This document shows positions 12,250 to 52,995 of a stretch of DNA of 63,308 bases, piece by piece. The number at the start of each line of letters is the position of its first letter. The first letter of the stretch is position 1. The stretch lies in the IMG/VR virus record IMGVR_UViG_3300035664_000014, positions 1 through 63,308 of that record; one strand, given 5' to 3'. A program made the translations under genes and the position numbers. Source of the stretch: a virus. Taxonomy: Duplodnaviria > Caudoviricetes. The notes under the pieces were generated by a model, which saw nothing but the letters and a program-made list of their open reading frames with translations, was not told where the DNA came from and did no database searches.

Positions 12250-13455
12250 ATGCCAGACATCCAAGTTTCATCAGATATTGATTCCTTCATGCTGTCTGCC
12301 AATCGGCAGGCCGCAATGGACAATCTTGCAGGATCAACAACCTCTGGAAGATACCTTCGTGGGAATGGAACGGATGTGGTCATGTCCACAATCCAGGCAG
12401 CGGATGTCCCAACGCTCAACCAGAACACCACTGGAACTGCTTCAAACGTCACTGGAACGGTTGCCACTGCAAACGGCGGAACAGGGCAGACGACTTACAG
12501 CAACGGGCAGCTTCTAATCGGCAACACCGCAGGCGGGCTTACAAAGGCAACGCTGACGGCTGGGAGTAATGTCACCATCACGAACGGCAATGGAGCTATC
12601 ACCATTGCATCTTCTGGCGGCAGTGTAACCCCGACCGACGTGCAGATATTCACATCGAACGGAACGTGGACAAAGCCTGCTGGGGCTGTATCGGTTAACA
12701 TTCAACTCTTCGGCGCAGGCGGAGGAGGTTCGAGTGGGCAGAAAAATAACAACACAACAATCGCTCGCGTTGCAGGTGGTGGAGGCTGTGGAGGTTCCTA
12801 TTTAAATGCAAACATCAGGGCTTCAGATTTAGGGGCAACGGAATCTGTTCTCATTGGCCTTGGTGGCGCAGGCGGGGCTGGACAAACAACAAACGGTGGA
12901 AGTCAAATTGCAGGCACAGCTGGAGGCAATACAACCTTTGGGTCGCTTATTGCTTTGGGAGGAGTTGCTGGTCAGGCCAACGGAACTGCTGGCACTGGAG
13001 GGCTGCAAGCGAATCCTGGTGGATCTGCTTCTGGAACAGGCTCAACTGGCGCGGCTGGATCTCCTTCGCTTGTAACTGTTTTAGCTGCGTATGGTGGTGC
13101 TGGTGGAGCAGGAGGAGGCGGCCTTACCAACACATCAGTGACTTCTGCTGGAGGAGCAGGCGGACGGTCTCATGCATTAAATTTAGCTGGTGGAGCAGCA
13201 GGAGCGCAAAGCAATGGCCCAGCTAACGCAGGGGCAGGGGGAGCGGGATTGTCTGCTCCAGCGAACATTTTTGCAGTTGGTTCTGGCGGAGGAGGCGGAG
13301 GAGGTGCAAAAGGTGGCGGAAGCGGAGGAGCAGGTGGAGCAGGTGGATTCCCAGCAGGCGGCGGGGGTGGTGGTGGAGCGACCGAAGATGGAGCAACAAG
13401 CGGCGCAGGCGGCACAGGCGCAAATGGGTTTGCTATTATAACAACTTACTTCTAA
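12250..13455 (+). CDS. glycine-rich fibre/appendage protein, copy 1
   Basis: FTSNGTWTKPAGA...GAGGGG glycine-rich domain ending IITTYF. Confidence 0.8.
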   Translation: MPDIQVSSDIDSFMLSANRQAAMDNLAGSTTSGRYLRGNGTDVVMSTIQAADVPTLNQNTTGTASNVTGTVATANGGTGQTTYSNGQLLIGNTAGGLTKATLTAGSNVTITNGNGAITIASSGGSVTPTDVQIFTSNGTWTKPAGAVSVNIQLFGAGGGGSSGQKNNNTTIARVAGGGGCGGSYLNANIRASDLGATESVLIGLGGAGGAGQTTNGGSQIAGTAGGNTTFGSLIALGGVAGQANGTAGTGGLQANPGGSASGTGSTGAAGSPSLVTVLAAYGGAGGAGGGGLTNTSVTSAGGAGGRSHALNLAGGAAGAQSNGPANAGAGGAGLSAPANIFAVGSGGGGGGGAKGGGSGGAGGAGGFPAGGGGGGGATEDGATSGAGGTGANGFAIITTYF

Positions 13456-13630
13456 GCAATGAAATACGCAGTCGTTGATGAGGCTACCAAAGTGGTAATG
13501 AACATGACTGTGTGGGACGGGGTGACACCTTGCACTCCACCACATGGCACAACTTTCGTTAATGTCACTGATACCCCATGTGGCATTGGCTGGATTGAGC
13601 AACCAGACGGAACCTTTGCCCCTCCTCCTG
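12250..13630 (+). repeat. Direct repeat copy 1 (identical core 12627-13586)
   Basis: Matches 51615-52995. Alternative-frame ORF translations in the core are identical, while the flanks are homologous but diverged. Confidence 0.95.
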
Positions 13631-13641
13631 AAGATGCCTAA
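13459..13641 (+). CDS. small partner of glycine-rich protein
   Basis: GIGW..DGTFAPPP motif; homologous to 52824-53003 and 54939-55124. Confidence 0.7.
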   Translation: MKYAVVDEATKVVMNMTVWDGVTPCTPPHGTTFVNVTDTPCGIGWIEQPDGTFAPPPEDA

Positions 13642-13906
13642 GAAGCAAGTCAACCTCTCGGTCTCTCGCGGCGAGAAGCTCCCAGTGTCCCAAGGCGCTG
13701 GGCTCACCGCGAAAGGCCGCGCAAAGTACAACCGCGCCACAGGCTCGAATCTGAAGGCTCCAGCACCCAACCCAAAGACGAAGGCAGACGAGGGCCGCAA
13801 GGCGTCGTTCTGTGCGCGTATGAGCGGGATGCCTGGGCCCATGAAAGACGAGAAAGGTCGCCCCACCCGCAAAGCTGCTTCACTTAAACGCTGGAACTGC
13901 AAATGA
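13634..13906 (+). CDS. DUF6321-like basic protein (phage B)
   Basis: GLTAKGRAKYNRATGSNLKAP...RKASFCARM...SLKRWNC. Confidence 0.7.
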   Translation: MPKKQVNLSVSRGEKLPVSQGAGLTAKGRAKYNRATGSNLKAPAPNPKTKADEGRKASFCARMSGMPGPMKDEKGRPTRKAASLKRWNCK

Positions 13907-14049
13907 AAAAAGGACTCTACGCCAACATCCACGCCAAACGCGAACGTATCGAAGCCGGTAGCAAGGAGAAGATGCGCAAGCCAGGCTCCAAGGGCGCCCC
14001 GACCGCTGCTGCGTTTAAGGCTTCTGCCAAGACCGCCAAGAAGAAGTAA
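13903..14049 (+). CDS. small basic protein (48 aa)
   Basis: MKKGLYANIHAKRERI...; overlaps both neighbours and is below the ORF-track size cutoff. Confidence 0.7.
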   Translation: MKKGLYANIHAKRERIEAGSKEKMRKPGSKGAPTAAAFKASAKTAKKK

Positions 14050-15452
14050 TGCAAGTCCCACTGCTCAGCGGTATCTACACGGACGGGGCCGGCGACTTTC
14101 GCCGAAGCTACCCGCGCAACTTGGTGCCCGTCGTTCAGCCATCCGGCTTGAGCGAAGGCTACCTGAGACCGGCTGACGGGATTAAGCAGTTCGCGGTAGG
14201 CCCAGGGCTCGACCGTGGTGGCATTGAGTGGAACAACGTGCTCTACCGCGTGATGGGCACGAAGCTCGTCTCGGTGAGTTCGCTTGGGAACGTGGTGGTG
14301 CTCGCGGACGTTGGCGGCAGTGGTCAAGTGACCTTTGACTACTCGGAGACGCTGCTAGCGATTCTCTCCAGCGGAACGCTGTACTACTGGAACGGCTCAA
14401 CGCTCACCAGCCTCACGCCTGACCCTGCCATGGGGCCAATCACAGACTTCTGCTGGGTGGATGGGTACTTCTTTCTGACGGACGGGTTTTTCATCGCTAC
14501 GACGAACTTGGTCAACCCGACCATCGTTCAGGCCAAGGCGACATCCGAAGCTGATCCAGACCCCATCGTCTCGATTCAGAAGTTCCGGAACGAGGTCTAT
14601 GCGATTAACCGACATACCATTGAGCTCTTCAACAACGTCGGTGGAGACATCCTATCCTTCCCGTTCGCTCGCATCGAAGGAGCCCAGATTCAACGGGGTG
14701 GAATCGGAACGTACTCCTGCTGCGTATATCTGGATTCTGTGGCTTTCGTCGGAGGCGGACGCAACGAGGCGCCATCGGTATGGTTGGCGTCCGGAGCCAA
14801 CACCGTCAAAATCGCTACACGGGAGATTGACCAGATTCTGGCAACTTACTCTGAAGCTGCTCTGGCTTCGACTATCTGTGAAACACGTCTGTACAACGGA
14901 CTTAACCACCTCTACATCCACCTTCCGGACCACACGCTAGTCTACGACGGCGCGATCTCGCAGGTCGCCGGCCAAGCCATCTGGTTCACGCTGGCTGACG
15001 GTCTCTACGGCAACAGCAGCTACCGCGCACGCAACTTTGTGTACGCTTACGACAAGTGGGTTTGCGGGGACACCTCAGCACCCAATCTCGGCTACGCGGT
15101 TCAAGACATCTCCTCGCTTTGGGGCGAGCGCGTTGGCTGGCAGTTCGAGACGCAAATCTTCTACAACGAAGGCAAGGGCGCCATCTTCCACGAACTGGAG
15201 CTCGTTGCCCTGCCTGGGCGCGTGGCTATTGGCATAAACCCAACCATCTTCGCGAGCTACTCGACTGATGGCGTCACCTACTCGCAAGAGCGTGGTATCA
15301 GCGCCGGTAAGACTGGGGACCGCAACAAGCGCCTGACGTGGATGCGCAACGGTCGCATGGGAGACTGGAGAACGTATCGCTTTCGCGGGACGAGCGACGC
15401 GCACTTGTCAATGGCCCGCTTGGAGGCGCGGCTTGAGCCGCTTGTGTGGTAA
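14049..15452 (+). CDS. P22 gp10-like DNA stabilization (tail hub) protein
   Basis: 467 aa; YPRNLVP...GYLRP, DGYF, EADPDPIV motifs. Confidence 0.85.
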   Translation: MQVPLLSGIYTDGAGDFRRSYPRNLVPVVQPSGLSEGYLRPADGIKQFAVGPGLDRGGIEWNNVLYRVMGTKLVSVSSLGNVVVLADVGGSGQVTFDYSETLLAILSSGTLYYWNGSTLTSLTPDPAMGPITDFCWVDGYFFLTDGFFIATTNLVNPTIVQAKATSEADPDPIVSIQKFRNEVYAINRHTIELFNNVGGDILSFPFARIEGAQIQRGGIGTYSCCVYLDSVAFVGGGRNEAPSVWLASGANTVKIATREIDQILATYSEAALASTICETRLYNGLNHLYIHLPDHTLVYDGAISQVAGQAIWFTLADGLYGNSSYRARNFVYAYDKWVCGDTSAPNLGYAVQDISSLWGERVGWQFETQIFYNEGKGAIFHELELVALPGRVAIGINPTIFASYSTDGVTYSQERGISAGKTGDRNKRLTWMRNGRMGDWRTYRFRGTSDAHLSMARLEARLEPLVW

Positions 15453-16199
15453 ATGGCCAACTCCATCAAGCCCAATCGGAATGACCTTGCCAAGTTCTTG
15501 CCCGACCAGCGCCTCATCCGCGCCTTCGAGCAACTCTTCGAGTACGTTCCAGCTGGCATCGACGCCAACACCATTGACTCGTATAACTCTCAGACGTCTG
15601 CACAACAGGCGCTTGACACGGTTGAAGCCCTTCGCAGCGTCATCGAGCTCGCTTCTACAGCGCCTACTGCGCAGGCTAACCAGATTGCTGAACTGGCCCA
15701 GCAGGTAGCTCTGCTCTCGCAGGCGCCACCGGTAGAGCAGCAGAAGAACCCGAGGTACGGCACCTTCTACGACACCACAACGCAGACCGCAGCGGCCATA
15801 AACACGGCATACGCCGTCACGTTCAACTCGACTGACCTCAGCTTCGGCGTGAGCACTGGAACGCCTGCAAGCCGCATTTACGTTGATTCTGAGGGCATCT
15901 ACAATTTCCAGTTCTCCATGCAGCTAGACAAGACCGCTGGAGGCGTTGGTCTGTTCTACTTGTGGGCGCGAATCAACGGCGTTGACCAAGCCAACTCGGC
16001 CACCCAAATCCGCATTCAGGGCAACAACGCAGAAAGTGTTGCGGCATGGAACTTCGTGTATAGAATGAACGCGGGAGATTACTTTGAGCTCATGTGGTCT
16101 GTGGACACAACAGACATCGAAATCAAAGCCTTTACCGCAGCCCCACCGGTGCCTGACATTCCGTCAGTCCTTTTGAGCGTCACCAACAACATCTCCTGA
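15453..16199 (+). CDS. virion protein (tail-needle position)
   Basis: Coiled-coil N-terminus with a beta-rich C-terminal domain, after the gp10-like gene. Confidence 0.6.
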   Translation: MANSIKPNRNDLAKFLPDQRLIRAFEQLFEYVPAGIDANTIDSYNSQTSAQQALDTVEALRSVIELASTAPTAQANQIAELAQQVALLSQAPPVEQQKNPRYGTFYDTTTQTAAAINTAYAVTFNSTDLSFGVSTGTPASRIYVDSEGIYNFQFSMQLDKTAGGVGLFYLWARINGVDQANSATQIRIQGNNAESVAAWNFVYRMNAGDYFELMWSVDTTDIEIKAFTAAPPVPDIPSVLLSVTNNIS

Positions 16200-16201
16200 C
16201 A

Positions 16202-16537
16202 ATGGCTGTAACCGTCAAAAACATCATCCCGCCCAAGCAGGCCGAGGCTGCTGCGACAGCCCAGTATCAGGCATCGAACTGCAAGTGCATCATCGACAAG
16301 TTCACGGTGACCAACACCTCTGCGGCGAATGCGTCCATCACGGTGAACCTGATTACGCCCTCGGGGACAGCCGGCAACAGCAACAGGATTCTTTCCTCGA
16401 AGGTCGTTGTGCCCAATGAGACCTACACCTGCCCAGAGCTCGTCGGGCAGGTTCTTGAGTCCGGTGGCATCATCTCCACAACCGCAAGCGCAGCGACCTC
16501 GCTGACCATCATGGCTTCTGGGAGGGAAGTGACCTAG
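16202..16537 (+). CDS. hypothetical virion protein
   Basis: 111 aa, in operon. Confidence 0.7.
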   Translation: MAVTVKNIIPPKQAEAAATAQYQASNCKCIIDKFTVTNTSAANASITVNLITPSGTAGNSNRILSSKVVVPNETYTCPELVGQVLESGGIISTTASAATSLTIMASGREVT

Positions 16538-16539
16538 AG

Positions 16540-16986
16540 ATGGAGTTTCAGCGTGAAATCTTTACCGAGCAACTTGGCAATGAAGCAGAAGAACTCATTG
16601 GGATTCATCACGAAGAAGTTTCTGGCGAAATCGCAGACCTTCCTGCAAGGGTTCCGTACGATAAGTATGGAGCTTTTGAGCAACTTGGACTGCTTCGCGT
16701 TTTCACTGCGCGACATGAGTCAAGGTTGGTTGGATACAACGTATTCGCGTTCGTTGAACACCATCAGCACGGCGTCAACTTTGCGTCCCACGACACCTTA
16801 TTTCTTCACAAGGACTTCAGAAAAGGAACAACTGGCATCAAGTTTCTTAAGTGGTGTGATGAACAACTTAAAAACGACGGCGCACTTTTTGTTACCCAGC
16901 ACTCATCAGCATCGATTGATCTTGAAAAGCTTCTTTTAAGGATGGGATACAAACTTGCAGAGAAGATTTACCTTAAACGATTCTAA
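16540..16986 (+). CDS. GNAT-fold acetyltransferase-like protein
   Basis: LVGY...LFLHKDFRKGTTGIKFL...LLRMGY pattern. Confidence 0.7.
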   Translation: MEFQREIFTEQLGNEAEELIGIHHEEVSGEIADLPARVPYDKYGAFEQLGLLRVFTARHESRLVGYNVFAFVEHHQHGVNFASHDTLFLHKDFRKGTTGIKFLKWCDEQLKNDGALFVTQHSSASIDLEKLLLRMGYKLAEKIYLKRF

Positions 16987-16989
16987 ATT

Positions 16990-18084
16990 ATGGGATTAGA
17001 TCCTCTTACAGGCACCGCTCTCGCATTGGGAGGAGCATCAATTTATTCTGGAAGACGTTCTGCTAAAGCTGCTCAAGCAGCAGCAAAAGCGCAGCAAAAA
17101 GGCATTGACCAAGGCATTGAAGAGCAAAGGCGTCAGTTTGATTTTGTTCAAAAAATCCTTGCTCCATACGTCTCGGCTGGACGGCCTGATTTGACGCAGC
17201 CGTACATCGCGGCTGGCCCAGGGGCGATTCAGCAGATGCAACGGCTTGTTGGTCTCGGCGGCGAACAAGCACGCCAACAGGCACTCTTCAATGTATATCA
17301 GGGGACAGATTACAGGCAGTTATCTGACATCACTGAGCAAAACATTGATGAGTACGAGCGCAATAGAAAGCAGGAACTAGAGCTCTTTAAGAAGTCAGCA
17401 GCGTACAAAAAACCAACTCTTGCAGAAGGGCAAAAGGGCAAAACGGCAATCAAACAAGCTCGTGAAGACCTTATTTCCAACTTCCAGCTTGCCACAGATA
17501 AGGGCATTCGAGACATCGAAACGCAGGGGTATAATCAACAGCAGGCTCTCCTTAAACCAGTCCTTGAGGACAAGCAGTACGAGCAGATGGGCATGGAGCA
17601 ACAGCGCCAAGCCATCCAGCAGATTGAGCAGGGGCCACTGTTCCAAGAGCTCGCTCGTCAAGGGGAGGCCGGTTTGCTCGCAACCGCATCTGCCACCGGT
17701 CGAAGGGGAGCTGATGACACGCAAAGCGCGATTGCGCGTTTCCGTCCGCAGCTTCTCAACTCGCTCATCGATCAAACGTATGCGCGACTTGGGGGATTGA
17801 CCAACGTCGGTCAAACAGCAGCGCAAAGCCTGCTCAACATCGGTCAAGCTTCAGCCGCTGGAACCGGGGCTGCGGCAACATCAGCAGGCAATGCAATCGC
17901 CGGTCTCTACTCGGATAGAGGCGCTGCTGGAGCGGCTGGAATCATTGGCGCAGCAAACGCTCAAAACCAAGGTCTCATGGGTGCTGTTGGCGCTCTTGGT
18001 GATTACGCACAGACATTCGGGGCACAAAACTTCGTTCGTGAAATGAAAGGTATGCCCCAGAAAAAGATGTTCGGATTCTTCTAA
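16990..18084 (+). CDS. DNA ejection protein, P22 gp7-like
   Basis: Hydrophobic Gly/Ala-rich ends, PYVSAG and ASATG motifs, position. Confidence 0.7.
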   Translation: MGLDPLTGTALALGGASIYSGRRSAKAAQAAAKAQQKGIDQGIEEQRRQFDFVQKILAPYVSAGRPDLTQPYIAAGPGAIQQMQRLVGLGGEQARQQALFNVYQGTDYRQLSDITEQNIDEYERNRKQELELFKKSAAYKKPTLAEGQKGKTAIKQAREDLISNFQLATDKGIRDIETQGYNQQQALLKPVLEDKQYEQMGMEQQRQAIQQIEQGPLFQELARQGEAGLLATASATGRRGADDTQSAIARFRPQLLNSLIDQTYARLGGLTNVGQTAAQSLLNIGQASAAGTGAAATSAGNAIAGLYSDRGAAGAAGIIGAANAQNQGLMGAVGALGDYAQTFGAQNFVREMKGMPQKKMFGFF

Positions 18085-18090
18085 AAGCGT

Positions 18091-19686
18091 ATGGCCTCTA
18101 AGTTCGATTACTCGATAAACATACCGCAACCAACAGGTTTTGGCGCTGGTATGATGCAGAAAATTGGAGCGTTGCAGAACATTGTTGAGGCCCAAGACAG
18201 GTCGGCTTTGATGCAGCAACTTGCTCCTTTGCAAGTTCAACAGGCGCAGGCAAACCTTGCTTCTACTCAACAGCAGATGTCTCAGAGCGCGGCTGCGGCG
18301 TCCCGAGAAGAAGCAAGGTTTGGAGAGTTCACAAAACAACAGGAGGCAGACAGGAATCTTGCGATTGCAATCTCTGAAGGCAAAAGCCCAGCAGAAATTG
18401 CCACACTGCTTCCAAATGCAAGCCCAGGGTTTGTTTCAAAGTTCCCACAACTTGCTCAAGCCATTACTGCGACAAAGATTGGCCCTCTGCTTGAGCGAGG
18501 GGAGATACGTCCTGAAGACAAGAAAACGGTAAACGATGCGCTTGTTCTCTCGTTTATGCTCAACCCGCAAGAGGGTAATGTGTTTCGGAGCGCGATTGCT
18601 GCAGTCCCAGACCCAGTTCGATCCGAATTTGGAAAACAGATTTCAATGGTAACGACAGCGGGGCTTGGCGGTGACAATGCAACTGCAATCAATCGTCTTC
18701 AAAGCCTTGTGGATGGATTGAAGAACAGTGAAAATCCTCAAAACAAAAATCTTGGAGAAATTGTATCAAAAGAACTGGAGAGCATTAAGAAGCAAAACAA
18801 AGAAGGAACTCTTGATCAAACAAGATGGTATCTTCGTGGCACAGAACTTTCCAATTTGCTTGGTCAATCTGCGATAGGAAAGATGATTGGAGAGACCGCT
18901 GAAACGTATTTCAAGCTCAAGAAAACCAAGGCTGAAGCAGAAAGGGAAACAGCTTTTGGAAAAAAAGCTCAAGGAGAATCAGGTGTTGGAAGACCTCTCG
19001 ATAAAATAGACGAGAAGGTGGTTGAGAGTTATGCGGATTCATCAATCAAAATGAATGAAACTGCAAACAATGCTCTTGATCTTTACAAGAAAGCAGAGGA
19101 ATTGAATTTAGACAGTGGTGCTCCCGCTCAAGTAAAAGAAGCAATTACTCGGTTTTTTGGCGGGGATGATGTGACGCAATTCAGAACGCAGATAGGCGGA
19201 ATGCTTGACGCTCAGGCTCTGCGTAACTGGAAACAAGCAGCTCCTGGCTCTGGAACAATGTCGAACACTGAAACGGCTCGTGCATTAAGCGCAATGCCAT
19301 CAAAAACGGCATCTCCCGTTATCTTGAAAGATTATCTGAAGGCAGTAGTAAACACCACTGCAAGAGCCGAAAATTACGAACAAGCACAAGTTGAGTGGGC
19401 TACAAACATTGGGTTGGCGCGAAAAGCTCAAGAGGACACCAGTATTGCTGGAATCCCTATCAAGAAGGGAGAATCCTTTCCTGATTTCAAAAAAAGAATC
19501 GTAAAACAACTAGGCTCAACGGACTTCTTTGAACAGATGCGGGAAGAGTCTAATGCAGTTGAGAAGCGTAAGATGGATGCTATTAGTCAACGGCCTCCAG
19601 AAGGTGGTCAAGCGCCTGATTTCAAAAATGTTGGAAATGATATTTTTGAGATAGCAGCAGAATACCTTCGGAAAGGAGGTAAGTAG
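18091..19686 (+). CDS. DNA ejection protein, gp20 position
   Basis: 531 aa, helical, SGTMSNTE motif, position. Confidence 0.6.
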   Translation: MASKFDYSINIPQPTGFGAGMMQKIGALQNIVEAQDRSALMQQLAPLQVQQAQANLASTQQQMSQSAAAASREEARFGEFTKQQEADRNLAIAISEGKSPAEIATLLPNASPGFVSKFPQLAQAITATKIGPLLERGEIRPEDKKTVNDALVLSFMLNPQEGNVFRSAIAAVPDPVRSEFGKQISMVTTAGLGGDNATAINRLQSLVDGLKNSENPQNKNLGEIVSKELESIKKQNKEGTLDQTRWYLRGTELSNLLGQSAIGKMIGETAETYFKLKKTKAEAERETAFGKKAQGESGVGRPLDKIDEKVVESYADSSIKMNETANNALDLYKKAEELNLDSGAPAQVKEAITRFFGGDDVTQFRTQIGGMLDAQALRNWKQAAPGSGTMSNTETARALSAMPSKTASPVILKDYLKAVVNTTARAENYEQAQVEWATNIGLARKAQEDTSIAGIPIKKGESFPDFKKRIVKQLGSTDFFEQMREESNAVEKRKMDAISQRPPEGGQAPDFKNVGNDIFEIAAEYLRKGGK

Positions 19687-19689
19687 AAA

Positions 19690-22600
19690 ATGGCAACGGT
19701 AGAAGATTTGGCGAAGGCGTTTGACCTTGCCAGAGAGAATGGAGATACCGAAAACGCGACTTACTTCGCGCAGGAATTGGTAAAATTCAAACAGGCTCAG
19801 GATCGCGCCCGCCAAGAAGCCGCTCTTCCAGCTGGAGAATCCGGTATCGAGCGACCTCCAGAAGAACTCCAGCCGCAACTGTTCTATGGTGAAGCGGCAA
19901 GGCAAGAGGCGAATCTGAACAAGAACGTATCGCGGGAACTCATCGCAGAACTTCGTAAGGCGCAGACCGGCGAGACTCCAACCGCAACGGAAGTTGAGTC
20001 GTTCAAAAAGACAGCTGGCAGCAAGTCCACAAGGGACTTTTTCGACAACCTTGTAGCCAAAGGCGGCATCGACATCGCATCTTCGTTTGATCCACAAGCC
20101 TCGCCAACGCTTGCCGGCGCGTGGGAGAAGTACAAGCAGGAGATGAAGCCAAGTGTGCTTGGAGCTGCTGCAAGAGGCGCGTCAGAGCAGATTCTTCCCA
20201 CAATCGGTGGAGCTTTGGGTGGGTTTGCTGCCGGAACAATGACTGCGAATCCAGTTGTTGGCATTGCTGGTGGAGTGGCTGGCGCAAAGCTCGGTGCAGA
20301 GCTTCAACAGTCAATACTTCCGCCAAGCGAGGCGGACTTGGCTCAACGCCGGTTTGACGAAGCTGCTGCTGCAACGCGGTACGCGAGAGCGGCTGGTGAG
20401 TTTGCGCCAGGTCTTGCCACCGGCGTCCCATCGCCTTCTCGCATCGGCGCAATAGCCGGCATGGGTTCTCAAGCCGCTGTCGCAGCCGCACGTAATATGG
20501 CCCTTAGAGAAGGCGCTATTGGGGCTGGAGCATCGTTTGCGGCGGCAGGCATGGAAGGCAGGCTTCCAACGGCTCAGGAGATGGCTGAAGGAGCCATCAT
20601 GGGCGCTATCACTCGCCCAACAAAGTTGGGAACGGCAATGATGATGCCGCGCGAGCAACGCACCCAGCTTGCTGGAAGAAGAAGCGCCGAGCAAACGATG
20701 CAGGAGTTTGCTGGCGGCGAAAAACCAGCGGAACTGGCCGCGACTGCAATCGAGAAGGGTATCCCAACGTCCCCAGGGGCGACGTTCTTCGCCGGTGAGA
20801 TTTCAGGCAACGAAGGGCTGCTTGGGTTGCAGGAAGCCTTGGCAACAACGAATGCTGGACTGCGCAGCATCCGCCAGCAAACACGCGAAGCGGTTGCTTC
20901 TGATTTGGGCGCAACGCTCCAGCCGCAGGGAGGCGCCGGTATTGAGGCCGCTCAAGGCGTTATCCAAGCCCAACACGACAAGCTTATCAGAGCTGCTGAA
21001 GCCGCCAGAGACAGCGCCATTGAAAAAGGCAACCGCGAAGCGGTAAGTGCCTTAAACGATGCTCTCGCCGAGTCCAGAAACAACTTTAATGCAGCCAAGC
21101 AGGGAGCGATTGCCGCTGATGCTGCTCTTGAAGCCAGCGCGGCGCGTCTAAAGCAGGCTGGTCAGCAGTTTGCTCAAGCGCAGAAAAGCCGGTCTCGGTC
21201 GGACCAAAGCATAACCGTTGAACAGGTGCTGCTGAGGAACGCTAAGGAGGAAAAGGCACTGCACGATGAGGCATATGCAAAAGCTCGCCAGGAGACCGGT
21301 GATCTTGTCGTTGACTACGCGAACACCATCGAGGCACTAAAAAAGGTTCAGAAGCAGGCTGGAGAGCGTGGAAATATTCCAGAGCACATCTCAAAGATGA
21401 TTGAAGATCTGATTGAGAATCCAGACAAAAATAAGGTCAACAGGGTTGAGGACATTGATTCTGATTACCGGAGCATTTCTGGAGAACTTTCAGACACCAA
21501 AAATATCGCCTATCAAAAATGGCTGGGGATGGTGAAAGATTCGCTTAAGGCAGACCTAGAAACTGCCGGTAACGCTTCTCCTCTGTTTGCAAGGGCCAAC
21601 AAACTGTATTTTGAATACGCACGCAAGTATTTCGATGGTCCTGCTTGGGGTGTTATTTATGGACGAGGCGACAAAAAGACGCCACCAAGCAAAACAATCG
21701 ACGCGTACACGTCCGACCTTGAATCCTTAATACAGCTTAAGGAGTCGATCAAAGGAGACCCTGCCGCGCAGCAGGCTATCGATAACTGGTTTGTCGATAT
21801 GTTCTCTCAAAAAGTTGAGTCTGCGCCGACTGTCAAGAGCATGGAAAACTGGGCCATGAAAGGGGATGCCAGAGATTTTTCCAGAGTGTTCCCATCTGCA
21901 AGGGCGGCTGTCGATAAAGCTCAATCGGACATCCGTACAGCGGAAGCTGGCGTTGAGCGTGCGCAGCAAGAGAAAACACTTGCCCGTGAACTTGCCGCCG
22001 AGGCAAAAGCTGAACTTACTGAAAAAAAGGTCGACGCAAAACAGCGCGAAACGGTTATTGAAAAAGAGAAGAGGCAACAGGCCAAGGAAGCGTTTAGGAA
22101 CGAGCAGGAGCGCATCCAAGGCATGGCTGTGAACAAGATTCTCGGCAAGGACGCTAAAATGGCTTTCACCAACATTTTCAAGTCCGACGACCCTGTTGGA
22201 ATGACCTCTGAAATCATGGCGACTCTGCGTGGCAACAAGCAGGCTGAAGAAGGGTTCAAGAATGCGCTTAGCAGCTATCTCAATGAAAATCTGCGGAGCA
22301 ATTCACGGGTTGAGACAACGCTAAACAAAGCGGAGCCGGTAAAGCCAGACGAGTTTGCTGCTCTTTTTGGAAAGCTGAACGACTTCCTTACTGAGGGATT
22401 GAGAGAGCGGGCCGTGCTGGAGAAGGTGTACGGCAAAGATTCCAAGGAGATGAAAGCCTTGGACATCATTCGCAAGCAGTACGAACTGCTCGCTCGTCCA
22501 ACAAGAACGACCCAAGGCCAATCACAGACAGCTCTCAGAACCGCGATTGGCAGCAATCTCTCCGACATAAACAAGAACAACTCACTCGGGGCGCTGCAAC

Positions 22601-22848
22601 GCATCGCTGCCGGTCTTGATGAGAAAGTTGGAGCTGGGGCAAGGTTCTTCACCGCTGTTTCGTCGCTGCTTCGATTCGCTTCAAAAGGAGACCCGTCTAA
22701 AGTTGCCTTGAACATCCTTGTTGAAGCGCAAACCAACCCGAAATTAGCCGCCGAGCTTCTCAGGGGCCAAACACCTGATAGTATCAAGAAACTACGCCCC
22801 TACGCTAAGTTCTACGGCCAGAAACAATCCGAAAAGGAGGAAAAGTAA
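19690..22848 (+). CDS. large DNA ejection protein, gp16 position
   Basis: 1052 aa, Ala-rich and helical, with GxxxG hydrophobic segments. Confidence 0.65.
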   Translation: MATVEDLAKAFDLARENGDTENATYFAQELVKFKQAQDRARQEAALPAGESGIERPPEELQPQLFYGEAARQEANLNKNVSRELIAELRKAQTGETPTATEVESFKKTAGSKSTRDFFDNLVAKGGIDIASSFDPQASPTLAGAWEKYKQEMKPSVLGAAARGASEQILPTIGGALGGFAAGTMTANPVVGIAGGVAGAKLGAELQQSILPPSEADLAQRRFDEAAAATRYARAAGEFAPGLATGVPSPSRIGAIAGMGSQAAVAAARNMALREGAIGAGASFAAAGMEGRLPTAQEMAEGAIMGAITRPTKLGTAMMMPREQRTQLAGRRSAEQTMQEFAGGEKPAELAATAIEKGIPTSPGATFFAGEISGNEGLLGLQEALATTNAGLRSIRQQTREAVASDLGATLQPQGGAGIEAAQGVIQAQHDKLIRAAEAARDSAIEKGNREAVSALNDALAESRNNFNAAKQGAIAADAALEASAARLKQAGQQFAQAQKSRSRSDQSITVEQVLLRNAKEEKALHDEAYAKARQETGDLVVDYANTIEALKKVQKQAGERGNIPEHISKMIEDLIENPDKNKVNRVEDIDSDYRSISGELSDTKNIAYQKWLGMVKDSLKADLETAGNASPLFARANKLYFEYARKYFDGPAWGVIYGRGDKKTPPSKTIDAYTSDLESLIQLKESIKGDPAAQQAIDNWFVDMFSQKVESAPTVKSMENWAMKGDARDFSRVFPSARAAVDKAQSDIRTAEAGVERAQQEKTLARELAAEAKAELTEKKVDAKQRETVIEKEKRQQAKEAFRNEQERIQGMAVNKILGKDAKMAFTNIFKSDDPVGMTSEIMATLRGNKQAEEGFKNALSSYLNENLRSNSRVETTLNKAEPVKPDEFAALFGKLNDFLTEGLRERAVLEKVYGKDSKEMKALDIIRKQYELLARPTRTTQGQSQTALRTAIGSNLSDINKNNSLGALQRIAAGLDEKVGAGARFFTAVSSLLRFASKGDPSKVALNILVEAQTNPKLAAELLRGQTPDSIKKLRPYAKFYGQKQSEKEEK

Positions 22849-45413: not shown

Positions 45414-45428
45414 TTAAACCCGCATGAT
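45401..45428 (+). promoter_or_regulatory. putative sigma70-like promoter for portal
   Basis: TTGACA-16 nt-CATGAT abutting the start codon. Confidence 0.45.
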
Positions 45429-47472
45429 GATGAGCATGAAGAACGATCCGGTTAAGGTCCACGCGGACGCGCTTGCGGAGTTTGACCGCATACAAGAGGT
45501 GCTCAGGAACGAGCGTTTGCAGTGCCTGCAAGACCGTCGGTTTTGTTCGATCCCAGGGGCTCAGTGGGAGGGGCCGCTCTCTGAGCAGTACGAGAACCGG
45601 CCGAGGTTCGAGGTGAACAAGACGCAGCTGGCGGTGATGCGTATCATCAACGACTACCGGTCGAACCGCATCACGGTGGAGTACGTCCCCAAGGAGAAAG
45701 AGTACGAGTCACTGGCGGAGACGTGCAACGGTCTCTTTCGGGCGACGGAAGTGGACTCGAGCGCGGAAGAGGCGTACGACAACGCCTTTGAAGAGGCGGT
45801 GACCGGTGGGTTTGGGGCGCTGCGCCTGCGCAATGAGTACGAGGACGAGTACAGCGGTGAGAGCGACGAGCAGCGCATATGTATTGAGCCGATTTACGAC
45901 GCGGACTCCTCGGTGTACTTTGACTTGAACGCGAAGCGGCAAGATAAGGCAGACGCGAAGCGGTGTTTTGTGATTACGGCCTTAACCCGTGAGGACTACG
46001 AAGCGGAGTGGGGGGACGACCCCACGACGTGGCCGAAAGAGATTACGCGCACCCAGTTCGACTGGCAGACGCCGGATGTGGTGTATGTGGCGGAGTACTA
46101 CCGTGTGGAGGAGACGACGGACTACATGGTGACGTTTGAGGGGCTTACGGGGGATGAGGAGAAGGAGCTTTTGTCGGTGCTCAAGGAAGGCAAGATGGAG
46201 GAGATGGAGGCGCTTGGGTACAAGGAAGTTAAGCGCAAGAAGATTAAGCAGAAGAAGGTGCACAAGTGGATTATGTCTGGGGGGAAGATCCTTGAGGACT
46301 GCGGGTACATTGCTGGGAAGTGCATCCCGATTGTGCCGGTGTACGGGAAGCGGTGGTTTGTGGACAACGTGGAGCGGTGCATGGGGCATGTGCGGCTCGC
46401 CAAAGACATGCAGCGCCTAAAGAACATGCAGCTCTCTAAGCTCGCAGAGATTTCGGCGCTCTCGTCCATGGAGAAGCCCATCTTCATGCCCGAGCAGGTG
46501 GCGGGGCATCAGGTGATGTGGGCGGAAGATAACCTCAAGAACTACCCGTACCTGCTGGTGAATGGGATTACGGACGCGCAAGGCGCGGTGCAACCGGCGC
46601 CGCCGTTGGCGTACACAAAAGCCCCGCAGGTGCCCCCTGCGATGGCGGCGTTGTTGGGGGTTACGGACATTGATATGCAGCAGCTCCTTGGGAGCCAAGG
46701 CAACGGGGACAAGATGGTGTCCCACGTTACCAGTAAGGCTGTGGACTTGGTGATGCAGCGCCTCGACATGCAGAGCTACATCTACGTCTCCAACATGGCG
46801 AAGGCCATTAAGCGCGTGGGCGAGATTTGGCTGTCCATGGCCAAAGACGTGTTCGTGGAAGATAAGCGCAAGATGAAGGTTGTGACGTCCAACGGCGAAC
46901 AGGACGAGATTGAGCTCATGACACCGGTGATTAACCCAGAGACCGGTGAGCTTGAGTACGACAACGACCTATCAGAAGCCGAGTTTGACGTGGCGGTGGA
47001 CGTGGGACCGTCTTCAACAACGAAGCGGCAAGCGACGGTGCAGGCGCTGCTCTCGATGATGGCGGTGACGCAAGACCCTGAGACGATGAACGTGCTCTCG
47101 TCCATGGCGATGATGAACATGGAAGGCGAAGGGCTTGGGGACGTGCGCAGCTACTTCCGCAAGAAGCTGCTGAAGATGGGCGCGGTTAAACCCACTGAGC
47201 AAGAGGCCCAGGAGCTCCTTGCCGAGGCCCAGAACGCCCAACCGGACGCACAGACGCAGTACTTCGCAGCAGAGGCGCAAAGGGCAAATGCGCTCGCTAC
47301 AAAGGCACAGGCCGACACGGTGCTTACGCTGGCAAGGGCCGAGGAGACGCGAGCGAAGACCGAGGAAACGATTGCAAAAGCTGGTCAGATTGATCAGGAC
47401 AAGGCGATGAAGCTGGCGGACCGCATCGAGGACGATGTGCAGAAGCTGGTAGCGCCGGTGCAAACATTTTAG
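45424..47472 (+). CDS. P22-like portal protein
   Basis: GAQW, FEVNK, GGFGA, IPIVPVYG, DVGPS motifs. Confidence 0.92.
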   Translation: MMMSMKNDPVKVHADALAEFDRIQEVLRNERLQCLQDRRFCSIPGAQWEGPLSEQYENRPRFEVNKTQLAVMRIINDYRSNRITVEYVPKEKEYESLAETCNGLFRATEVDSSAEEAYDNAFEEAVTGGFGALRLRNEYEDEYSGESDEQRICIEPIYDADSSVYFDLNAKRQDKADAKRCFVITALTREDYEAEWGDDPTTWPKEITRTQFDWQTPDVVYVAEYYRVEETTDYMVTFEGLTGDEEKELLSVLKEGKMEEMEALGYKEVKRKKIKQKKVHKWIMSGGKILEDCGYIAGKCIPIVPVYGKRWFVDNVERCMGHVRLAKDMQRLKNMQLSKLAEISALSSMEKPIFMPEQVAGHQVMWAEDNLKNYPYLLVNGITDAQGAVQPAPPLAYTKAPQVPPAMAALLGVTDIDMQQLLGSQGNGDKMVSHVTSKAVDLVMQRLDMQSYIYVSNMAKAIKRVGEIWLSMAKDVFVEDKRKMKVVTSNGEQDEIELMTPVINPETGELEYDNDLSEAEFDVAVDVGPSSTTKRQATVQALLSMMAVTQDPETMNVLSSMAMMNMEGEGLGDVRSYFRKKLLKMGAVKPTEQEAQELLAEAQNAQPDAQTQYFAAEAQRANALATKAQADTVLTLARAEETRAKTEETIAKAGQIDQDKAMKLADRIEDDVQKLVAPVQTF

Positions 47473-47498: not shown

Positions 47499-48371
47499 AT
47501 GGAGAACAACAACACGGCAGTAGATGCTGAAGTTGTCTTGGAAGATGAGGAAGCTCCCGTAGCGGAGGCTGTGGCTGAGGAGACCGGTACGCCGGCGACC
47601 TCGGAGCCAGCCAAAGACGGGGAAGCGACCGCTTCAGAAGAGATCGACGTCAGTATCGGGGATTCGCCAACCCAGAAAGAGGACGCAGAGAAAGCACCGG
47701 AATGGGTGCGTGAAGTGCGTAAAACGAATCGGGAACTGCACCGTAAGAATCGGGAGCTAGAAGAGAAGCTGAAGGCAATATCGGCAACTGAGAACAATCC
47801 GGTTGACCCTGGGCCAAAGCCGACACTTGAAGGCGCTGATTACGACACGGAGAAGTACGAGGCCAAGCTGGCAGAGTGGTTTGACCGGAAACGGAAAGCT
47901 ACTGAACTCCAAGCCAAGGCCGAGGAAGAGCAGCAAGCCCAACAAGCAGAGTGGCACAAGAAGCTTGAGAACTACGCGAAGTCGAAGACTGAGCTGAAGG
48001 TTCGAGACTACGAAGATGCCGAATCTGCGGTGCAAGAGGTGTTGAACACGACTCAACAAGGGATCCTGTTGCAGGGTTCAGACAACTCGGCATTGCTGGT
48101 GTACGCGCTGGGTAAAAACCCCAAGAAAGCGAAAGAACTCTCTGAGATAAAAGACCCAGTGAGGTTCGCGTTCGCGGTGGCAAAACTCGAAACACAACTC
48201 AAGGTGACAAAGAAAACTGCTCCTCCTCCAGAGAAGACCCCACCGTCCGGCGGGGCTAGGTCAACCGGTGGTTCCGACGAAGTGTTGGACAACCTACGCG
48301 CAAAGGCTGAGCGCACCGGTGACTACACGCAGGTAATCGCCTACAAACGTCAATTGCAGTCAAAAAAGTAA
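47499..48371 (+). CDS. scaffolding protein (phage B)
   Basis: Acidic N-terminus, coiled coil, before the coat gene. Confidence 0.8.
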   Translation: MENNNTAVDAEVVLEDEEAPVAEAVAEETGTPATSEPAKDGEATASEEIDVSIGDSPTQKEDAEKAPEWVREVRKTNRELHRKNRELEEKLKAISATENNPVDPGPKPTLEGADYDTEKYEAKLAEWFDRKRKATELQAKAEEEQQAQQAEWHKKLENYAKSKTELKVRDYEDAESAVQEVLNTTQQGILLQGSDNSALLVYALGKNPKKAKELSEIKDPVRFAFAVAKLETQLKVTKKTAPPPEKTPPSGGARSTGGSDEVLDNLRAKAERTGDYTQVIAYKRQLQSKK

Positions 48372-48374: not shown

Positions 48375-49688
48375 ATGGCTAACTCGTTCAATAAAGAAGA
48401 GCGCGTAGCGTTTGAAAACCTCCTTGAGGGGTTCAACGACGCGCTTGTCCTCTCCCGTAACGTCTCGATCTACAACACGGATCAGACGATGATGGAGCGC
48501 ACCAACAACGTCATCTGGCGCCCGCAGCCCTACATCGCGACTTCGCTCTCGAACGCCGGTGTGGGTACGGACATCACCAGCGTTGGTGGCTACGCCTCCT
48601 ACACCCAGCTCGCGGTTCCCGCCAGCATCAACCAGACGCGCACGGTCGCTTTCGAGCTCAACGCTCAAGAGCTTCGTGACGCTCTGCAAGAGCAACGCCT
48701 TGGCAACTCGGCCAAGCAGAAACTCGCTTCTGACATCAACGTGTCAGTGCTGAACATCGCGGCCAATCAGGGCACGCTGGTGGTTAAGCGCACGACGGCG
48801 GCTGGTGCTTCGAGTGGTTTCGATGACGTCGCCCAGTGCGAGGCCATCTTCAACGAGCAAGGCATCATGGACGGCGACCGCTACCTCGCGCTCAACACGC
48901 GGGACTACAACGGTCTTGCTAACGACCTTGCCAAGGCTTCGCGCTCCTTCGGGAACCAGAAGTCCGACAAGGCGTATGAGCGTGCATACGTTGGGATGGT
49001 AGCGTCCTTCGACATCTACAAGCTCGACTACGCGGTGCGGCTGTCTGCTGGGTCTGCTACGGCGACCATCAACACGACCGACGCGGCAGCGAACTACTAC
49101 ATCCCGAAAGCCATCTCGACCTCGCCAACGACGGCTGAGCGGCTCAACGTGGATAACCGCTTCCAGTCTCTGACGGTGGCAGTTTCTGCTGGCGCCTTGG
49201 CGGCAGGGGACGCGTTCACCATCGCTGGCATCAACGCAGTGCATCACATCACCAAAGGTGACACCGGTCAGCCTAAGACCTTCCGTGTTATCTCGGCGAG
49301 TGCGCCTGCTGCCGGTAGCCAAGCGATCGTCATCAGCCCTCCGATCATCTCGAACCAGGTTGCTAACGCGGCTTCTGCGCAGAACCAAAACTGCGTGGCG
49401 AACACGAAGGCATCCAACGCGGCAATCACGCTCCTCAACACGGCAGCAGCTCCTGTGAACTGCTTCTGGCACAAGGACGCGATTGAAATCCTCCCTGGCC
49501 GCTACTCGCTCCCCGACAACGCCGGCGTTGCGGTGATGCGCGGTTCAACCGACCAAGGGTTGGAGCTCGTCATGACCAAGCGTTTCGACCAGAACACTCT
49601 CACGACCAAGTATCGTGTGGACACGTTCTACGGGGTTGTCAACAAGCAGCCCGAAATGAGTGGTATCATCCTGTTCAATCAGGTATAG
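48375..49688 (+). CDS. P22 gp5-like coat protein
   Basis: WRPQPY, AKQKLASD, AGDAFTIAG, YGVVNKQPEM motifs. Confidence 0.92.
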   Translation: MANSFNKEERVAFENLLEGFNDALVLSRNVSIYNTDQTMMERTNNVIWRPQPYIATSLSNAGVGTDITSVGGYASYTQLAVPASINQTRTVAFELNAQELRDALQEQRLGNSAKQKLASDINVSVLNIAANQGTLVVKRTTAAGASSGFDDVAQCEAIFNEQGIMDGDRYLALNTRDYNGLANDLAKASRSFGNQKSDKAYERAYVGMVASFDIYKLDYAVRLSAGSATATINTTDAAANYYIPKAISTSPTTAERLNVDNRFQSLTVAVSAGALAAGDAFTIAGINAVHHITKGDTGQPKTFRVISASAPAAGSQAIVISPPIISNQVANAASAQNQNCVANTKASNAAITLLNTAAAPVNCFWHKDAIEILPGRYSLPDNAGVAVMRGSTDQGLELVMTKRFDQNTLTTKYRVDTFYGVVNKQPEMSGIILFNQV

Positions 49689-49913: not shown

Positions 49914-50233
49914 CTGATTTCCCCATCATGGTGTACCGCTCGCCAGGCAAAAGCCCTGCGCGATATGGCACCTACGACTACTGCGGCGTCGAATCACAAG
50001 ACGAACTCGATGAAGCCCTCTCTTTGGGCTGGAGTTTGAGTGTTGAAGAGGCTGTGGACACCTACAACAAGGCCGTTGAGGCCGCTGTAAGGCTCAAGAA
50101 CGAGCCGAAAGTGAAGATTGTGGTCAGTGAGCCCGAATCCGAGGCTGCGCCTGCTCCTGAGGCTGCCGGAGAGCCGGTTTTGCTGGCTGAAGAAGACGAA
50201 GAAGAAGACAAACCGCGCCGCAAGCGCAAATAA
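49910..50233 (+). CDS. hypothetical protein
   Basis: 107 aa, in operon. Confidence 0.7.
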
Positions 50234-50237
50234 CCGC

Positions 50238-50714
50238 ATGGGATACACTAAACGCCAGTTCGTTGAGGCCGCTTTTGAGGAACTCGGGTTGGCGTCTTAT
50301 GTGTTTGACCTCACGCCCGACGAGCTTCAGTCAGCGGTGCGCCGGCTTGATGCCATGGTGGCGCAGTGGTACGCGAAAGCCATCCAGATTGGCTACCCTT
50401 TGACCAACTCGCCTGACAACGCTGACCTCGACACGCAGACCAATGTGCCGTTAACAGCCAACGAGGCGATCATCTTGAATCTGGCGATGCGTATCGCCCC
50501 GCAGTACGGCAAAGCGCCTTCGCCTGACACCAAGACAGGCGCGATTGCTGGCTACCAGACGCTCCTCATGCAGAGCGCCAACGTCCTTCAGCAGCAGTAC
50601 CCTTCGCAGATGCCTTCTGGCGCTGGCAACAAGGATGTGGACTGGCCGTTCTTGCCGGTTCCGTCTCTTGGCCCCATCGAGCAACAACCCAACGGTCAGC
50701 TTCTCTTCCTCTAA
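50238..50714 (+). CDS. P22 gp4-like head-to-tail adaptor
   Basis: LDAMVAQW...IGY...NLAMRIAPQYG...MPSGAGN. Confidence 0.85.
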   Translation: MGYTKRQFVEAAFEELGLASYVFDLTPDELQSAVRRLDAMVAQWYAKAIQIGYPLTNSPDNADLDTQTNVPLTANEAIILNLAMRIAPQYGKAPSPDTKTGAIAGYQTLLMQSANVLQQQYPSQMPSGAGNKDVDWPFLPVPSLGPIEQQPNGQLLFL

Positions 50715-51160: not shown

Positions 51161-51454
51161 ATGACACTCCCATTCAATCCCTCTTACGGTAGCGGACAAA
51201 CCCAGTCAGCAACTGGAACCTCCGCCCAGTACAGCATCCAATCTGGCACCCGCAGCATCTGCGTGACCAACACCGGTTCAACCAATCCGGTGTACGTCCG
51301 CATCGGGCAGGGCACGATTACCGCAACGACCGCTGACTACATCGTCATGCCGAGCAGCCAAGTGTCCCTTGGCAAGTTCGAGGACGATAACGTCATTGCA
51401 ATCATCTCGCCTTCCGGAACGACGGTTAACTTCATCTGCGGCGCTGGCCTGTGA
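51161..51454 (+). CDS. hypothetical virion protein
   Basis: 97 aa, beta-rich. Confidence 0.7.
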   Translation: MTLPFNPSYGSGQTQSATGTSAQYSIQSGTRSICVTNTGSTNPVYVRIGQGTITATTADYIVMPSSQVSLGKFEDDNVIAIISPSGTTVNFICGAGL

Positions 51455-51609
51455 TTCGTTACCTCTCAAGACGACGCTCGAAGACGCCTGCGGGGCCCAC
51501 GGTGACCCCTCCAGGGCCGCCTCCCGCTGCGTCGTTCTACCTGCGCCCTGGTGGCGGAACGAACTACTATCGCCGGCCAGGCGGCGTTGACCGGTACATC
51601 AGACCCTAA
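51451..51609 (+). CDS. small protein with YxRP repeats (52 aa)
   Basis: FYLRPGGGTNYYRRPGGVDRYIRP. Confidence 0.6.
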   Translation: MIRYLSRRRSKTPAGPTVTPPGPPPAASFYLRPGGGTNYYRRPGGVDRYIRP

Positions 51610-51614
51610 AGCAT

Positions 51615-52820
51615 ATGCCTGACATTACAGTATCCTCTGACATCGACTCCTTCATGCAGTCTGCCAACCGGCAGGCCGCGATGGACAACCTCGCCGGCGC
51701 AACGACCTCCGGTCAGTACCTTCGCGGGAACGGATCGGACGTTGTTATGTCGGCAATCCAAGCCGCTGACGTCCCAACGCTCAACCAGAACACGACCGGC
51801 ACGGCGGCTGGTCTGTCCGCAACGCTGGCTGAGACGTCTGGCGGAACGGGGAAGACCAGCTACACGAACGGAGAGCTTCTCATCGGCAACGCCGCAGGCG
51901 GGCTTACAAAGGCTACGCTGACGGCAGGTAGCAATGTCACCATCACGAACGGCAACGGAGCTATCACCATTGCATCTTCTGGCGGCAGCGCAACCCCGAC
52001 CGACGTGCAGATATTCACATCGAACGGAACGTGGACAAAGCCTGCTGGGGCTGTATCGGTTAACATTCAACTCTTCGGCGCAGGCGGAGGAGGTTCGAGT
52101 GGGCAGAAAAATAACAACACAACAATCGCTCGCGTTGCAGGTGGTGGAGGCTGTGGAGGTTCCTATTTAAATGCAAACATCAGGGCTTCAGATTTAGGGG
52201 CAACGGAATCTGTTCTCATTGGCCTTGGTGGCGCAGGCGGGGCTGGACAAACAACAAACGGTGGAAGTCAAATTGCAGGCACAGCTGGAGGCAATACAAC
52301 CTTTGGGTCGCTTATTGCTTTGGGAGGAGTTGCTGGTCAGGCCAACGGAACTGCTGGCACTGGAGGGCTGCAAGCGAATCCTGGTGGATCTGCTTCTGGA
52401 ACAGGCTCAACTGGCGCGGCTGGATCTCCTTCGCTTGTAACTGTTTTAGCTGCGTATGGTGGTGCTGGTGGAGCAGGAGGAGGCGGCCTTACCAACACAT
52501 CAGTGACTTCTGCTGGAGGAGCAGGCGGACGGTCTCATGCATTAAATTTAGCTGGTGGAGCAGCAGGAGCGCAAAGCAATGGCCCAGCTAACGCAGGGGC
52601 AGGGGGAGCGGGATTGTCTGCTCCAGCGAACATTTTTGCAGTTGGTTCTGGCGGAGGAGGCGGAGGAGGTGCAAAAGGTGGCGGAAGCGGAGGAGCAGGT
52701 GGAGCAGGTGGATTCCCAGCAGGCGGCGGGGGTGGTGGTGGAGCGACCGAAGATGGAGCAACAAGCGGCGCAGGCGGCACAGGCGCAAATGGGTTTGCTA
52801 TTATAACAACTTACTTCTAA
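51615..52820 (+). CDS. glycine-rich fibre/appendage protein, copy 2
   Basis: 401 aa; C-terminal ~275 aa identical to copy 1. Confidence 0.8.
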   Translation: MPDITVSSDIDSFMQSANRQAAMDNLAGATTSGQYLRGNGSDVVMSAIQAADVPTLNQNTTGTAAGLSATLAETSGGTGKTSYTNGELLIGNAAGGLTKATLTAGSNVTITNGNGAITIASSGGSATPTDVQIFTSNGTWTKPAGAVSVNIQLFGAGGGGSSGQKNNNTTIARVAGGGGCGGSYLNANIRASDLGATESVLIGLGGAGGAGQTTNGGSQIAGTAGGNTTFGSLIALGGVAGQANGTAGTGGLQANPGGSASGTGSTGAAGSPSLVTVLAAYGGAGGAGGGGLTNTSVTSAGGAGGRSHALNLAGGAAGAQSNGPANAGAGGAGLSAPANIFAVGSGGGGGGGAKGGGSGGAGGAGGFPAGGGGGGGATEDGATSGAGGTGANGFAIITTYF

Positions 52821-52995
52821 GCAATGAAATACGCAGTCGTTGATGAGGCTACCAAAGTGGTAATGAACATGACTGTGTGGGACGGGGTGACACCTTGCAC
52901 TCCACCACATGGCACAACTTTCGTTAATGTCACTGATACCCCATGTGGCATGGGCTGGATTGAACAACCAGACGGAACCTTTGCACCTCCACCAG
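51615..52995 (+). repeat. Direct repeat copy 2 (identical core 51992-52951)
   Basis: Matches 12250-13630. Confidence 0.95.

Follow-up and report, generated by a model that had tools for sequence, protein, structure and literature searches.

A P22-like phage genome nested in an SU10-capsid-type phage contig: very probably an assembly chimera joined at a shared fibre module

The IMG/VR virus record IMGVR_UViG_3300035664_000014 (Duplodnaviria; Caudoviricetes) consists of one linear contig, 63,308 bp long, that lacks both N and terminal repeats, and the whole of it is referred to here as the window. IMG/VR lists the record as 'linear' with a CheckV completeness of 100. Two unrelated sets of phage genes are found in the window. 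The outer set, phage A, appears to be that of a podophage with an SU10-type capsid and is divided into a left portion (A-left) and a right portion (A-right), which together account for 23,943 bp. The inner set, phage B, carries P22-type portal, scaffold, coat, gp4-like and gp10-like genes in the order known from P22, and is flanked on each side by a copy of a module consisting of a fibre gene and a small open reading frame (ORF). The B sequence that follows the first copy is called B-right and the B sequence that precedes the second copy is called B-left. A preliminary description of the window presented the arrangement as a whole phage nested inside another, either a genuine cointegrate or, at least as likely, an assembler chimera. 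The anatomy given there and the chimera branch are upheld by the analysis described below, while the cointegrate is not favoured: very probably, the contig is a chimera in which the genomes of two distinct phages of one lake sample were joined through the fibre module that they share.

The two module copies form a direct repeat (copy 1, 12250-13635; copy 2, 51615-53000) and lie exactly 39,365 bp apart. Over 12250-12626 the copies are about 77-89% identical per 100 nt, and this part is followed by a core of 960 bp (12627-13586 and 51992-52951) that is 100% identical. On the 3' side of the core there are five mismatches in 13587-13635, beyond which identity drops to about 25%, the random level; the identity within the repeat is far more than chance would provide. 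Each copy is a mosaic. In copy 1, the first 377 nt are of A type and the final 50 nt or so, after the core, are of B type, while in copy 2 the 5' part is of B type and the final 50 nt or so are of A type. Both joins sit at the ends of the identical block, and the spacing of 39,365 bp and the core of 960 bp agree with the preliminary description. The insert is exactly one B unit, with a direct repeat on each side and reciprocal hybrid flanks. Counted with one repeat copy only, the P22-like genome of B has a length of exactly 39,365 bp. When the window is rewritten as free A plus free B, all genes are intact in both models, since the block of homology neither starts nor stops within a gene. A crossover and an assembler's walk round a loop both predict exactly this sequence, which by itself cannot discriminate between the two.

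The composition of the window says that A-left and A-right are one genome and that B is a genome of its own. The tetranucleotide correlation between A-left and A-right is 0.916, and their GC contents are nearly the same (Table 1). The two GC-rich thirds of B (57%) have a correlation of 0.933 with each other and of 0.56-0.62 with A, and the third that holds the tail genes is intermediate (0.80-0.81 with A); A-left alone has correlations of 0.59-0.80 with the thirds of B.

Sequencing depth also indicates that A and B are separate. The stretch 9600-18600 is contained in 20 public runs, with a share of 0.99 in run X1, which is a possible source run of the contig, and of 0.93 in runs X2 and X3, which belong to other studies. 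Positions 3001-23000 of the window were compared with the Logan contigs of four runs (X1-X4), and all depths given here are mean k-mer depths of contigs, not values from read mapping. In X1, A-left (3001-12621) is covered by a contig of 12,027 bp at a depth of 27.6, the core (12592-13586) by a contig of 995 bp at a depth of 61 that has the B-left letters at 12624 and 12626, and B-right (13557-23000) at a depth of 45.9. The depths of A and B differ 1.66-fold, and that of the core is nearer to the sum of A and B (73.5); a finer reading of the difference between 61 and 73.5 was dropped as too rough. The X1 contigs break at both ends of the core with overlaps of 30 nt, a pattern that marks a k=31 graph node with branches on either side. 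In X2, the bins of A-left have depths of 4.7-7.9 and those of B-right 13-35; in X3, the corresponding values are 2.9-6.3 and 10-18. The ratio of A to B is 0.6 in X1, about 0.25 in X2 and about 0.3 in X3, so that the 1:1 stoichiometry of a cointegrate is not observed, and a ratio that varies between runs is as expected for independent replicons. The comparison of depths proposed in the preliminary description has therefore given unequal values, with a different ratio in each run. The reading of 17 further runs, which contain 0.51-0.60 of the sampled words, as B without A was abandoned, as X4, which is one of them, has fragmentary relatives of both at 95-99% identity; the shares of the others are not counted as evidence.

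The depths also constrain what enters the core. Since only A-left and B-left lead into it, arithmetic on the X1 depths requires that at least 45.9-27.6 = 18x of B-right be preceded by B-left, and in X2 and X3 most of B-right must be preceded by B-left. The probable source sample therefore contains B in free or concatemeric form, so that the contig is one of several possible paths through the graph. Contigs with the B-left-core-B-right junction are found in X2 (record 9, 1226 bp, depth 25.6) and X3 (record 18, 1162 bp, depth 16.5); both have a start of B-left type, run through the whole core and end at 13675, 40 nt into B-right. Record 9 has 18 differences from the window, all of them left of the core where copy 2 differs from copy 1, and the loose letters at its left end are those of B-left 51818-51842. 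No contig listed for the four runs bridges A-left-specific and B-right-specific sequence. Cointegrates alone cannot explain these depths. With B-B junctions present, the graph decomposes equally well as A plus B or as the cointegrate (A::B) plus B.

The same parental junctions are found in related contigs. For comparison, 151 loci from IMG/VR and metagenomes were collected with the shared fibre, the third A fibre and the 9328-10509 protein of A as queries, and 64 of them could be classified by having at least one blastn high-scoring segment pair of at least 300 bp to the window. B-left and B-right occur together in 26 loci, and A-left and A-right in six loci that represent four distinct contigs (L139, L122, L058=L144 and L100=L141). 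A-left is joined to B-left or B-right in 0 of the 64, and A-right is found with B-left or B-right in three (L059-L061). Of the others, 12 match A-left alone, five B-left alone, three B-right alone and two A-right alone, and seven have fewer than 500 specific bases. The 26 B loci (e.g. L001-L004 and L006-L023) run from B-left into a fibre gene, which is followed directly by the small ORF and then by the DUF6321 and gp10-like genes, and the content of the slot between the gp4-like and gp10-like genes is variable. In the four A contigs, A-left is followed by 2.6-4.8 kb of fibre genes and then by A-right. All of these comparators, four contigs of A type and 26 loci of B type, have parental junctions, and none has a hybrid one.

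Each phage also has near-complete free relatives in IMG/VR, which, with their parental junctions, answers the search for free A and free B contigs suggested in the preliminary description. A-left is 90-95% identical to the free A-like contigs L139, L140, L141 and L144. In the closest of these, L139, 95% identity extends to 12066 and homology returns at 55071 after 3,710 bp; the free-A model, in which B and one repeat copy are taken out of the window, predicts 3,639 bp for this interval. Free A-like records of 41,565 and 44,657 bp have a CheckV completeness of 100 each. B is colinear with three free B-like records (G001-G003) of 37,773, 37,118 and 37,560 bp, for which CheckV gives 99, 96 and 98. 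Both ends of the window lie in A: the relatives of A extend past its left end, and at its right end the last ORF is open. From the 42-45 kb of the free relatives, the window would hold about half of an A genome. No match to isolate phages in INPHARED was found by megablast with A-left plus the core or with 25 kb of B.

These observations would be explained by the way in which the graph was traversed. B would be a complete genome that assembles as a circle, and the core would form one node of the de Bruijn graph, with A-left and B-left as its entries, A-right and B-right as its exits, and the B edge looping back onto it. The assembler's path would then have run from A-left into the core, once round B, into the core again and out to A-right, so that the core was written twice. 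This order would be expected, because path-extending assemblers leave a loop through its non-cyclic ends, as SPAdes-type path extension does. The true molecules would most likely be A-left-core-A-right and a circle or concatemer of B. In all likelihood, then, the nested phage is no real feature but a chimera produced by loop traversal, and the headline of the preliminary description, a whole phage nested in another as a biological object, is not supported in view of the unequal depths, the free A and B genomes and the parental junctions. Repeats and mosaicism are described as a cause of chimeric phage contigs (PMC10104058), and viral assemblies are reported in which some contigs run collinear with two different complete viruses (PMC8862349).

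Several points weigh against this reading. All four runs are represented by Logan contigs, so that linkage over the 960-bp core is seen at the level of contigs and not of reads. The refuting result named in the preliminary description combined unequal coverage, which was found, with spanning reads of only A-A and B-B type, for which the data are contigs only. The B-B contigs of X2 and X3 may follow coverage and not read links, and a cointegrate at 27.6x together with free B at 18x gives an identical graph and identical depths. B carries recombination genes, and fibre genes recombine between the lineages, which means that cointegrates from a single crossover are bound to arise now and then when both phages infect one cell. 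A contig with A-left-core-A-right of this exact A strain was not found: the exact A-left-specific and A-right-specific patterns gave 0 matches each in viral contigs, and a metagenome scan with the pattern across the core end and A-right gave a single match, a relative of 2,999 bp that is 72% identical (L138). It ends 124 nt left of the boundary and shows no more than that, in a distant relative, the small ORF leads directly into the third A fibre; it says nothing on A-A linkage.

A genuine cointegrate as the main form is improbable. It would stem from a co-infection in which one homologous crossover within the identical core fused circular or concatemeric B into A, possibly aided by the Sak4-like, Cas4-like and RusA proteins or by host RecA. 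The structure is exactly what one crossover predicts, with direct repeats, hybrid flanks and one B unit. The recombination genes in B, the repeated exchange of fibre cassettes, as in L059-L061, whose fibre is 92% identical to the third A fibre, and the X1 depths, which fit 27.6x of cointegrate with 18x of free B, are all in its favour. It would, however, imply that practically every A genome of the sample carries B, since otherwise the path of the contig has no support over the A-A path. The ratio of A to B is unequal across X1, X2 and X3, and the A-B join is found in none of the classifiable loci, against the four contigs and 26 loci with parental junctions. Headful packaging sets limits on the length of the packaged DNA, and a molecule of about 82 kb (42-45 kb plus 39 kb) should fit neither capsid if packaging is headful or of unit length. 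If true, the cointegrate would be a captured intermediate of cassette exchange between families within a lake population, one partner being of SU10-capsid type and the other P22-like.

A mixture in which free A and free B dominate, and in which the path of the contig mirrors a rare real cointegrate or recombining concatemer in infected cells, is very unlikely. Recombination between identical sequences of 960 bp in co-infecting phages is expected, and cassette exchange between the lineages is evident; no data require such molecules, however, and data at the contig level are blind to minority junctions. It is harder still to credit one real phage of at least 63 kb that stably maintains two full structural gene sets, with B resident in A or piggy-backing on it. 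The CheckV value of 100 would agree with such a phage, and one report describes a phage that carries a nearly complete second phage genome (PMC3398947). Yet the depths of A and B are unequal and their ratio varies, each half is known as a separate near-complete genome, the contig begins and ends within A, and no integrase was found in searches with PF00589 and PF00239. The loop-traversal chimera remains the preferred account.

The part of the locus that is real is the module itself. The homologous block comprises two whole genes, from the ATG of the fibre gene to the stop of the small ORF. The fibre is a glycine-rich protein of 401 residues (PF21722, Gly_rich_2; tail-fibre PHROGs), and its two copies are 95% identical, with every difference within the first 127 residues. 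The small ORF adjoining it on the 3' side encodes 60 residues in copy 1 and 59 in copy 2. A truncated DUF6321 ORF was considered for copy 2 and rejected, as the homology stops at the separate ORF of 59 or 60 residues in another frame; the DUF6321 gene after copy 1 more likely starts at 13634. In B, the order is fibre, small ORF and DUF6321 gene. A has a second unit of like design, consisting of fibre 3, a paralogous ORF of 61 residues and a DUF6321 gene. Members of the family of 59-61-residue ORFs lie directly 3' of each fibre and have a conserved terminal IGWI...DG.F.PPP motif, and a DUF6321 gene comes next both in B and after fibre 3 of A. These small proteins may be fibre-associated assembly factors.

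The module is genuinely common to two unrelated podophage lineages that occur together. Contigs of the B lineage (L001-L003) have the same module in the same slot at 94-95% protein identity. In an A-lineage contig (L027), whose neighbouring gene has 66% protein identity, the core is 92-93% identical at the matching position and the contig breaks off within it; in the metagenome that yielded L027, there is also a B-like contig (L057) that starts inside that core. The two breaks look like the same assembly problem left unresolved. The A-like part of the three B-like contigs L059-L061 is limited to the fibre that resembles A fibre 3 (53680-55102), in the slot between the gp4-like and gp10-like genes, together with, in L059 and L060, a 69% match to A 12084-12298, upstream of fibre 2. 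This arrangement is a cassette swap and not a cointegrate. That the module is shared is the outcome of a recent exchange of fibre cassettes by recombination, and related contigs show that such cassettes are swapped repeatedly between the two lineages, a known kind of mosaicism. A second sequence common to the two lineages is the B gene at 33134-33469, of 111 residues, which has 98.9% nucleotide identity over 357 bp to a gene of a free A-like genome, G005 (L155 1501-1857); G005 also has several diverged paralogues of it (69-90%).

Table 1. Regions and genes of the window, with the matches on which their names are based; the strand given for a gene is that of its region
Feature	Position	Strand	Match or remark
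A-left	1..12249	+	Left portion of outer phage A; GC 52.9%
Shared module copy 1	12250..13641	+	Fibre 12250-13455 and small ORF 13459-13641
B-specific part of inner P22-like genome	13634..51614	+	Family matches, colinear free relatives
Shared module copy 2	51615..53003	+	Fibre 51615-52820 and small ORF 52824-53003
A-right	53004..63308	+	Right portion of phage A; GC 52.8%
A DUF1599 'nucleotide modification associated' gene	741-1055		PF07659, E 7.7e-6
A terL	1650-3386	+	phrog_2
A putative portal	3386-5494	+	Position; PDB portal match E 0.14
A indel ORF	5494-6513	+	339 aa, 3' of putative portal
A major capsid	7854-8933	+	PF17236 SU10_MCP, E 1.3e-42, 146.8 bits vs cutoff 24.1
A structural/fibre genes	9328-10509; 10511-11926	+
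B DUF6321 gene	13634-13906	+
B gp10-like Hc3	14049-15452	+	phrog_578, E 3e-97
B ejection protein	16990-18084	+
B tailspikes	22855-24957; 25050-27083	+
B endolysin-like	27518-28144	+	phrog_7, weak, E 1.8e-7
B Sak4-like ATPase	29083-29928	+
B helicase	30673-32316	+
B Cas4-like nuclease	34043-34840	+
B primase	34753-37374	+
B RusA	38174-38623	+
B terL	43854-45299	+	phrog_2
B portal	45424-47472	+	phrog_156, E 6e-132
B scaffold	47499-48371	+	phrog_648, E 1e-57
B coat	48375-49688	+	phrog_283, E 4e-67; P22 coat protein 2xyy, E 7.7e-30
B gp4-like Ad3	50118-50714	+	phrog_637
A fibre 3	53010-54935	+
A paralogous small ORF	54939-55124	+	61 aa
A DUF6321 gene	about 55117-55377	+
A endolysin	55708-56172	+	E 5.6e-24
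A virion protein	56405-58423	+
A PAPS-reductase-like gene	60984-61865	+	PF01507, E 1.2e-10

The gene content of the window bears out most of what the preliminary description had recognised. Both large terminases match phrog_2, the two major capsids belong to unrelated families, and there are two endolysins, that of A with a firm match and that of B with a weak one. The gp4-like and gp10-like genes that were said to flank the module in B are both matched, and the Sak4-like, Cas4-like and RusA assignments agree with the family matches. Of the two portals and two scaffolds reported, those of B stand; for A, neither the putative portal nor the 'scaffold', which was assigned by position, has a Pfam or PHROG match. 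The preliminary description saw no integrase or transposase, and searches of all six frames for tyrosine recombinase, serine recombinase and rve transposase (PF00589, PF00239 and PF00665; other transposase families not searched) gave 0 matches with positive controls, so that an insertion by an enzyme of these families has no gene to account for it.

The capsid protein of A belongs to the PF17236 family, which makes it SU10-type by family, from the gene alone, and does not place the phage in the SU10 genus. The 9328-10509 protein has no PDB match. The ORF at 5494-6513 has no family match and is an indel: seven related contigs (L142, L143, L122, L145, L146, L148 and L150) and a contig of run X4 jump from 5481 to about 6507-6510. 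Fibres 1 and 3 of A contain units of 41 nt (at 10757-11040 and 53436-53965), spaced about 120 or 240 nt apart, which are in-frame repeats that encode a G-T-L-x-x-A-N-G-G-T-G-like motif. The PAPS-reductase-domain gene and the DUF1599 gene are a joint hint of DNA modification functions in A. In B, a direct repeat of 89 nt (40305-40393 and 41086-41174; 76% identity, 781 bp apart) sits in a gene-poor stretch upstream of the packaging genes and may be regulatory or of origin type.

A real nested phage would be remarkable as a biological object, but the evidence points to an artefact, and the public record with its completeness of 100 probably combines a whole phage genome with roughly half of a second one. 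Chimeras of this kind can pass completeness checks. They mimic integrations flanked by direct repeats, and catalogues, predictions of hosts and networks of gene sharing can be contaminated by them. What is real, two unrelated freshwater podophage lineages with a common module, is of modest interest and fits the movement of host-recognition modules between phage families that is described in PMC10579305.

Among known systems, the window shares several features with repeat-induced chimeric contigs in metagenomes. As in these, the join lies exactly at an identical repeat, here of 960 bp, the repeat is written twice, and the parts differ in coverage and composition and are each found separately elsewhere. 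The repeat is longer than typical short reads or inserts, the library type of the source not being on record. Unlike end-to-end chimeras, the traversal of a loop here would have embedded one full B circle in a fragment of A, mimicking integration. B resembles the P22 phages in having portal, scaffold, coat, gp4-like, gp10-like, ejection protein and tailspike genes in P22 order, and differs from them in the fibre gene, small ORF and DUF6321 gene between its gp4-like and gp10-like genes and in the lack of a match to the two integrase families searched. A nearly whole phage genome within that of another phage has one published counterpart, in that SpaA1 and BceA1 contain an almost complete MZTP02 genome, as stated in PMC3398947. 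According to the same source, SpaA1 is an isolated phage of 42.8 kb with defined cohesive ends. SpaA1 is thus a packaged molecule, whereas the present case is a metagenomic contig whose parts are unequal in abundance and would total about 82 kb. The closest published parallel found is the host-recognition module of the Alteromonas phages A5 and V22, a fibre with its cognate chaperone, which PMC10579305 describes as common to distant families. In both cases, a fibre and the adjoining small gene are shared as a unit by unrelated phages. For A and B, the limits of the exchanged segment coincide with the ends of genes, and either lineage has the module in further contigs. The 59/60-residue ORF and the DUF6321 gene are known from sequence alone, so that the label of chaperone would be guesswork for them. 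Relative to A5 and V22, the lineages involved here are SU10-capsid-type and P22-like, they come from lake metagenomes, and the module is 100% identical over 960 nt in one sample.

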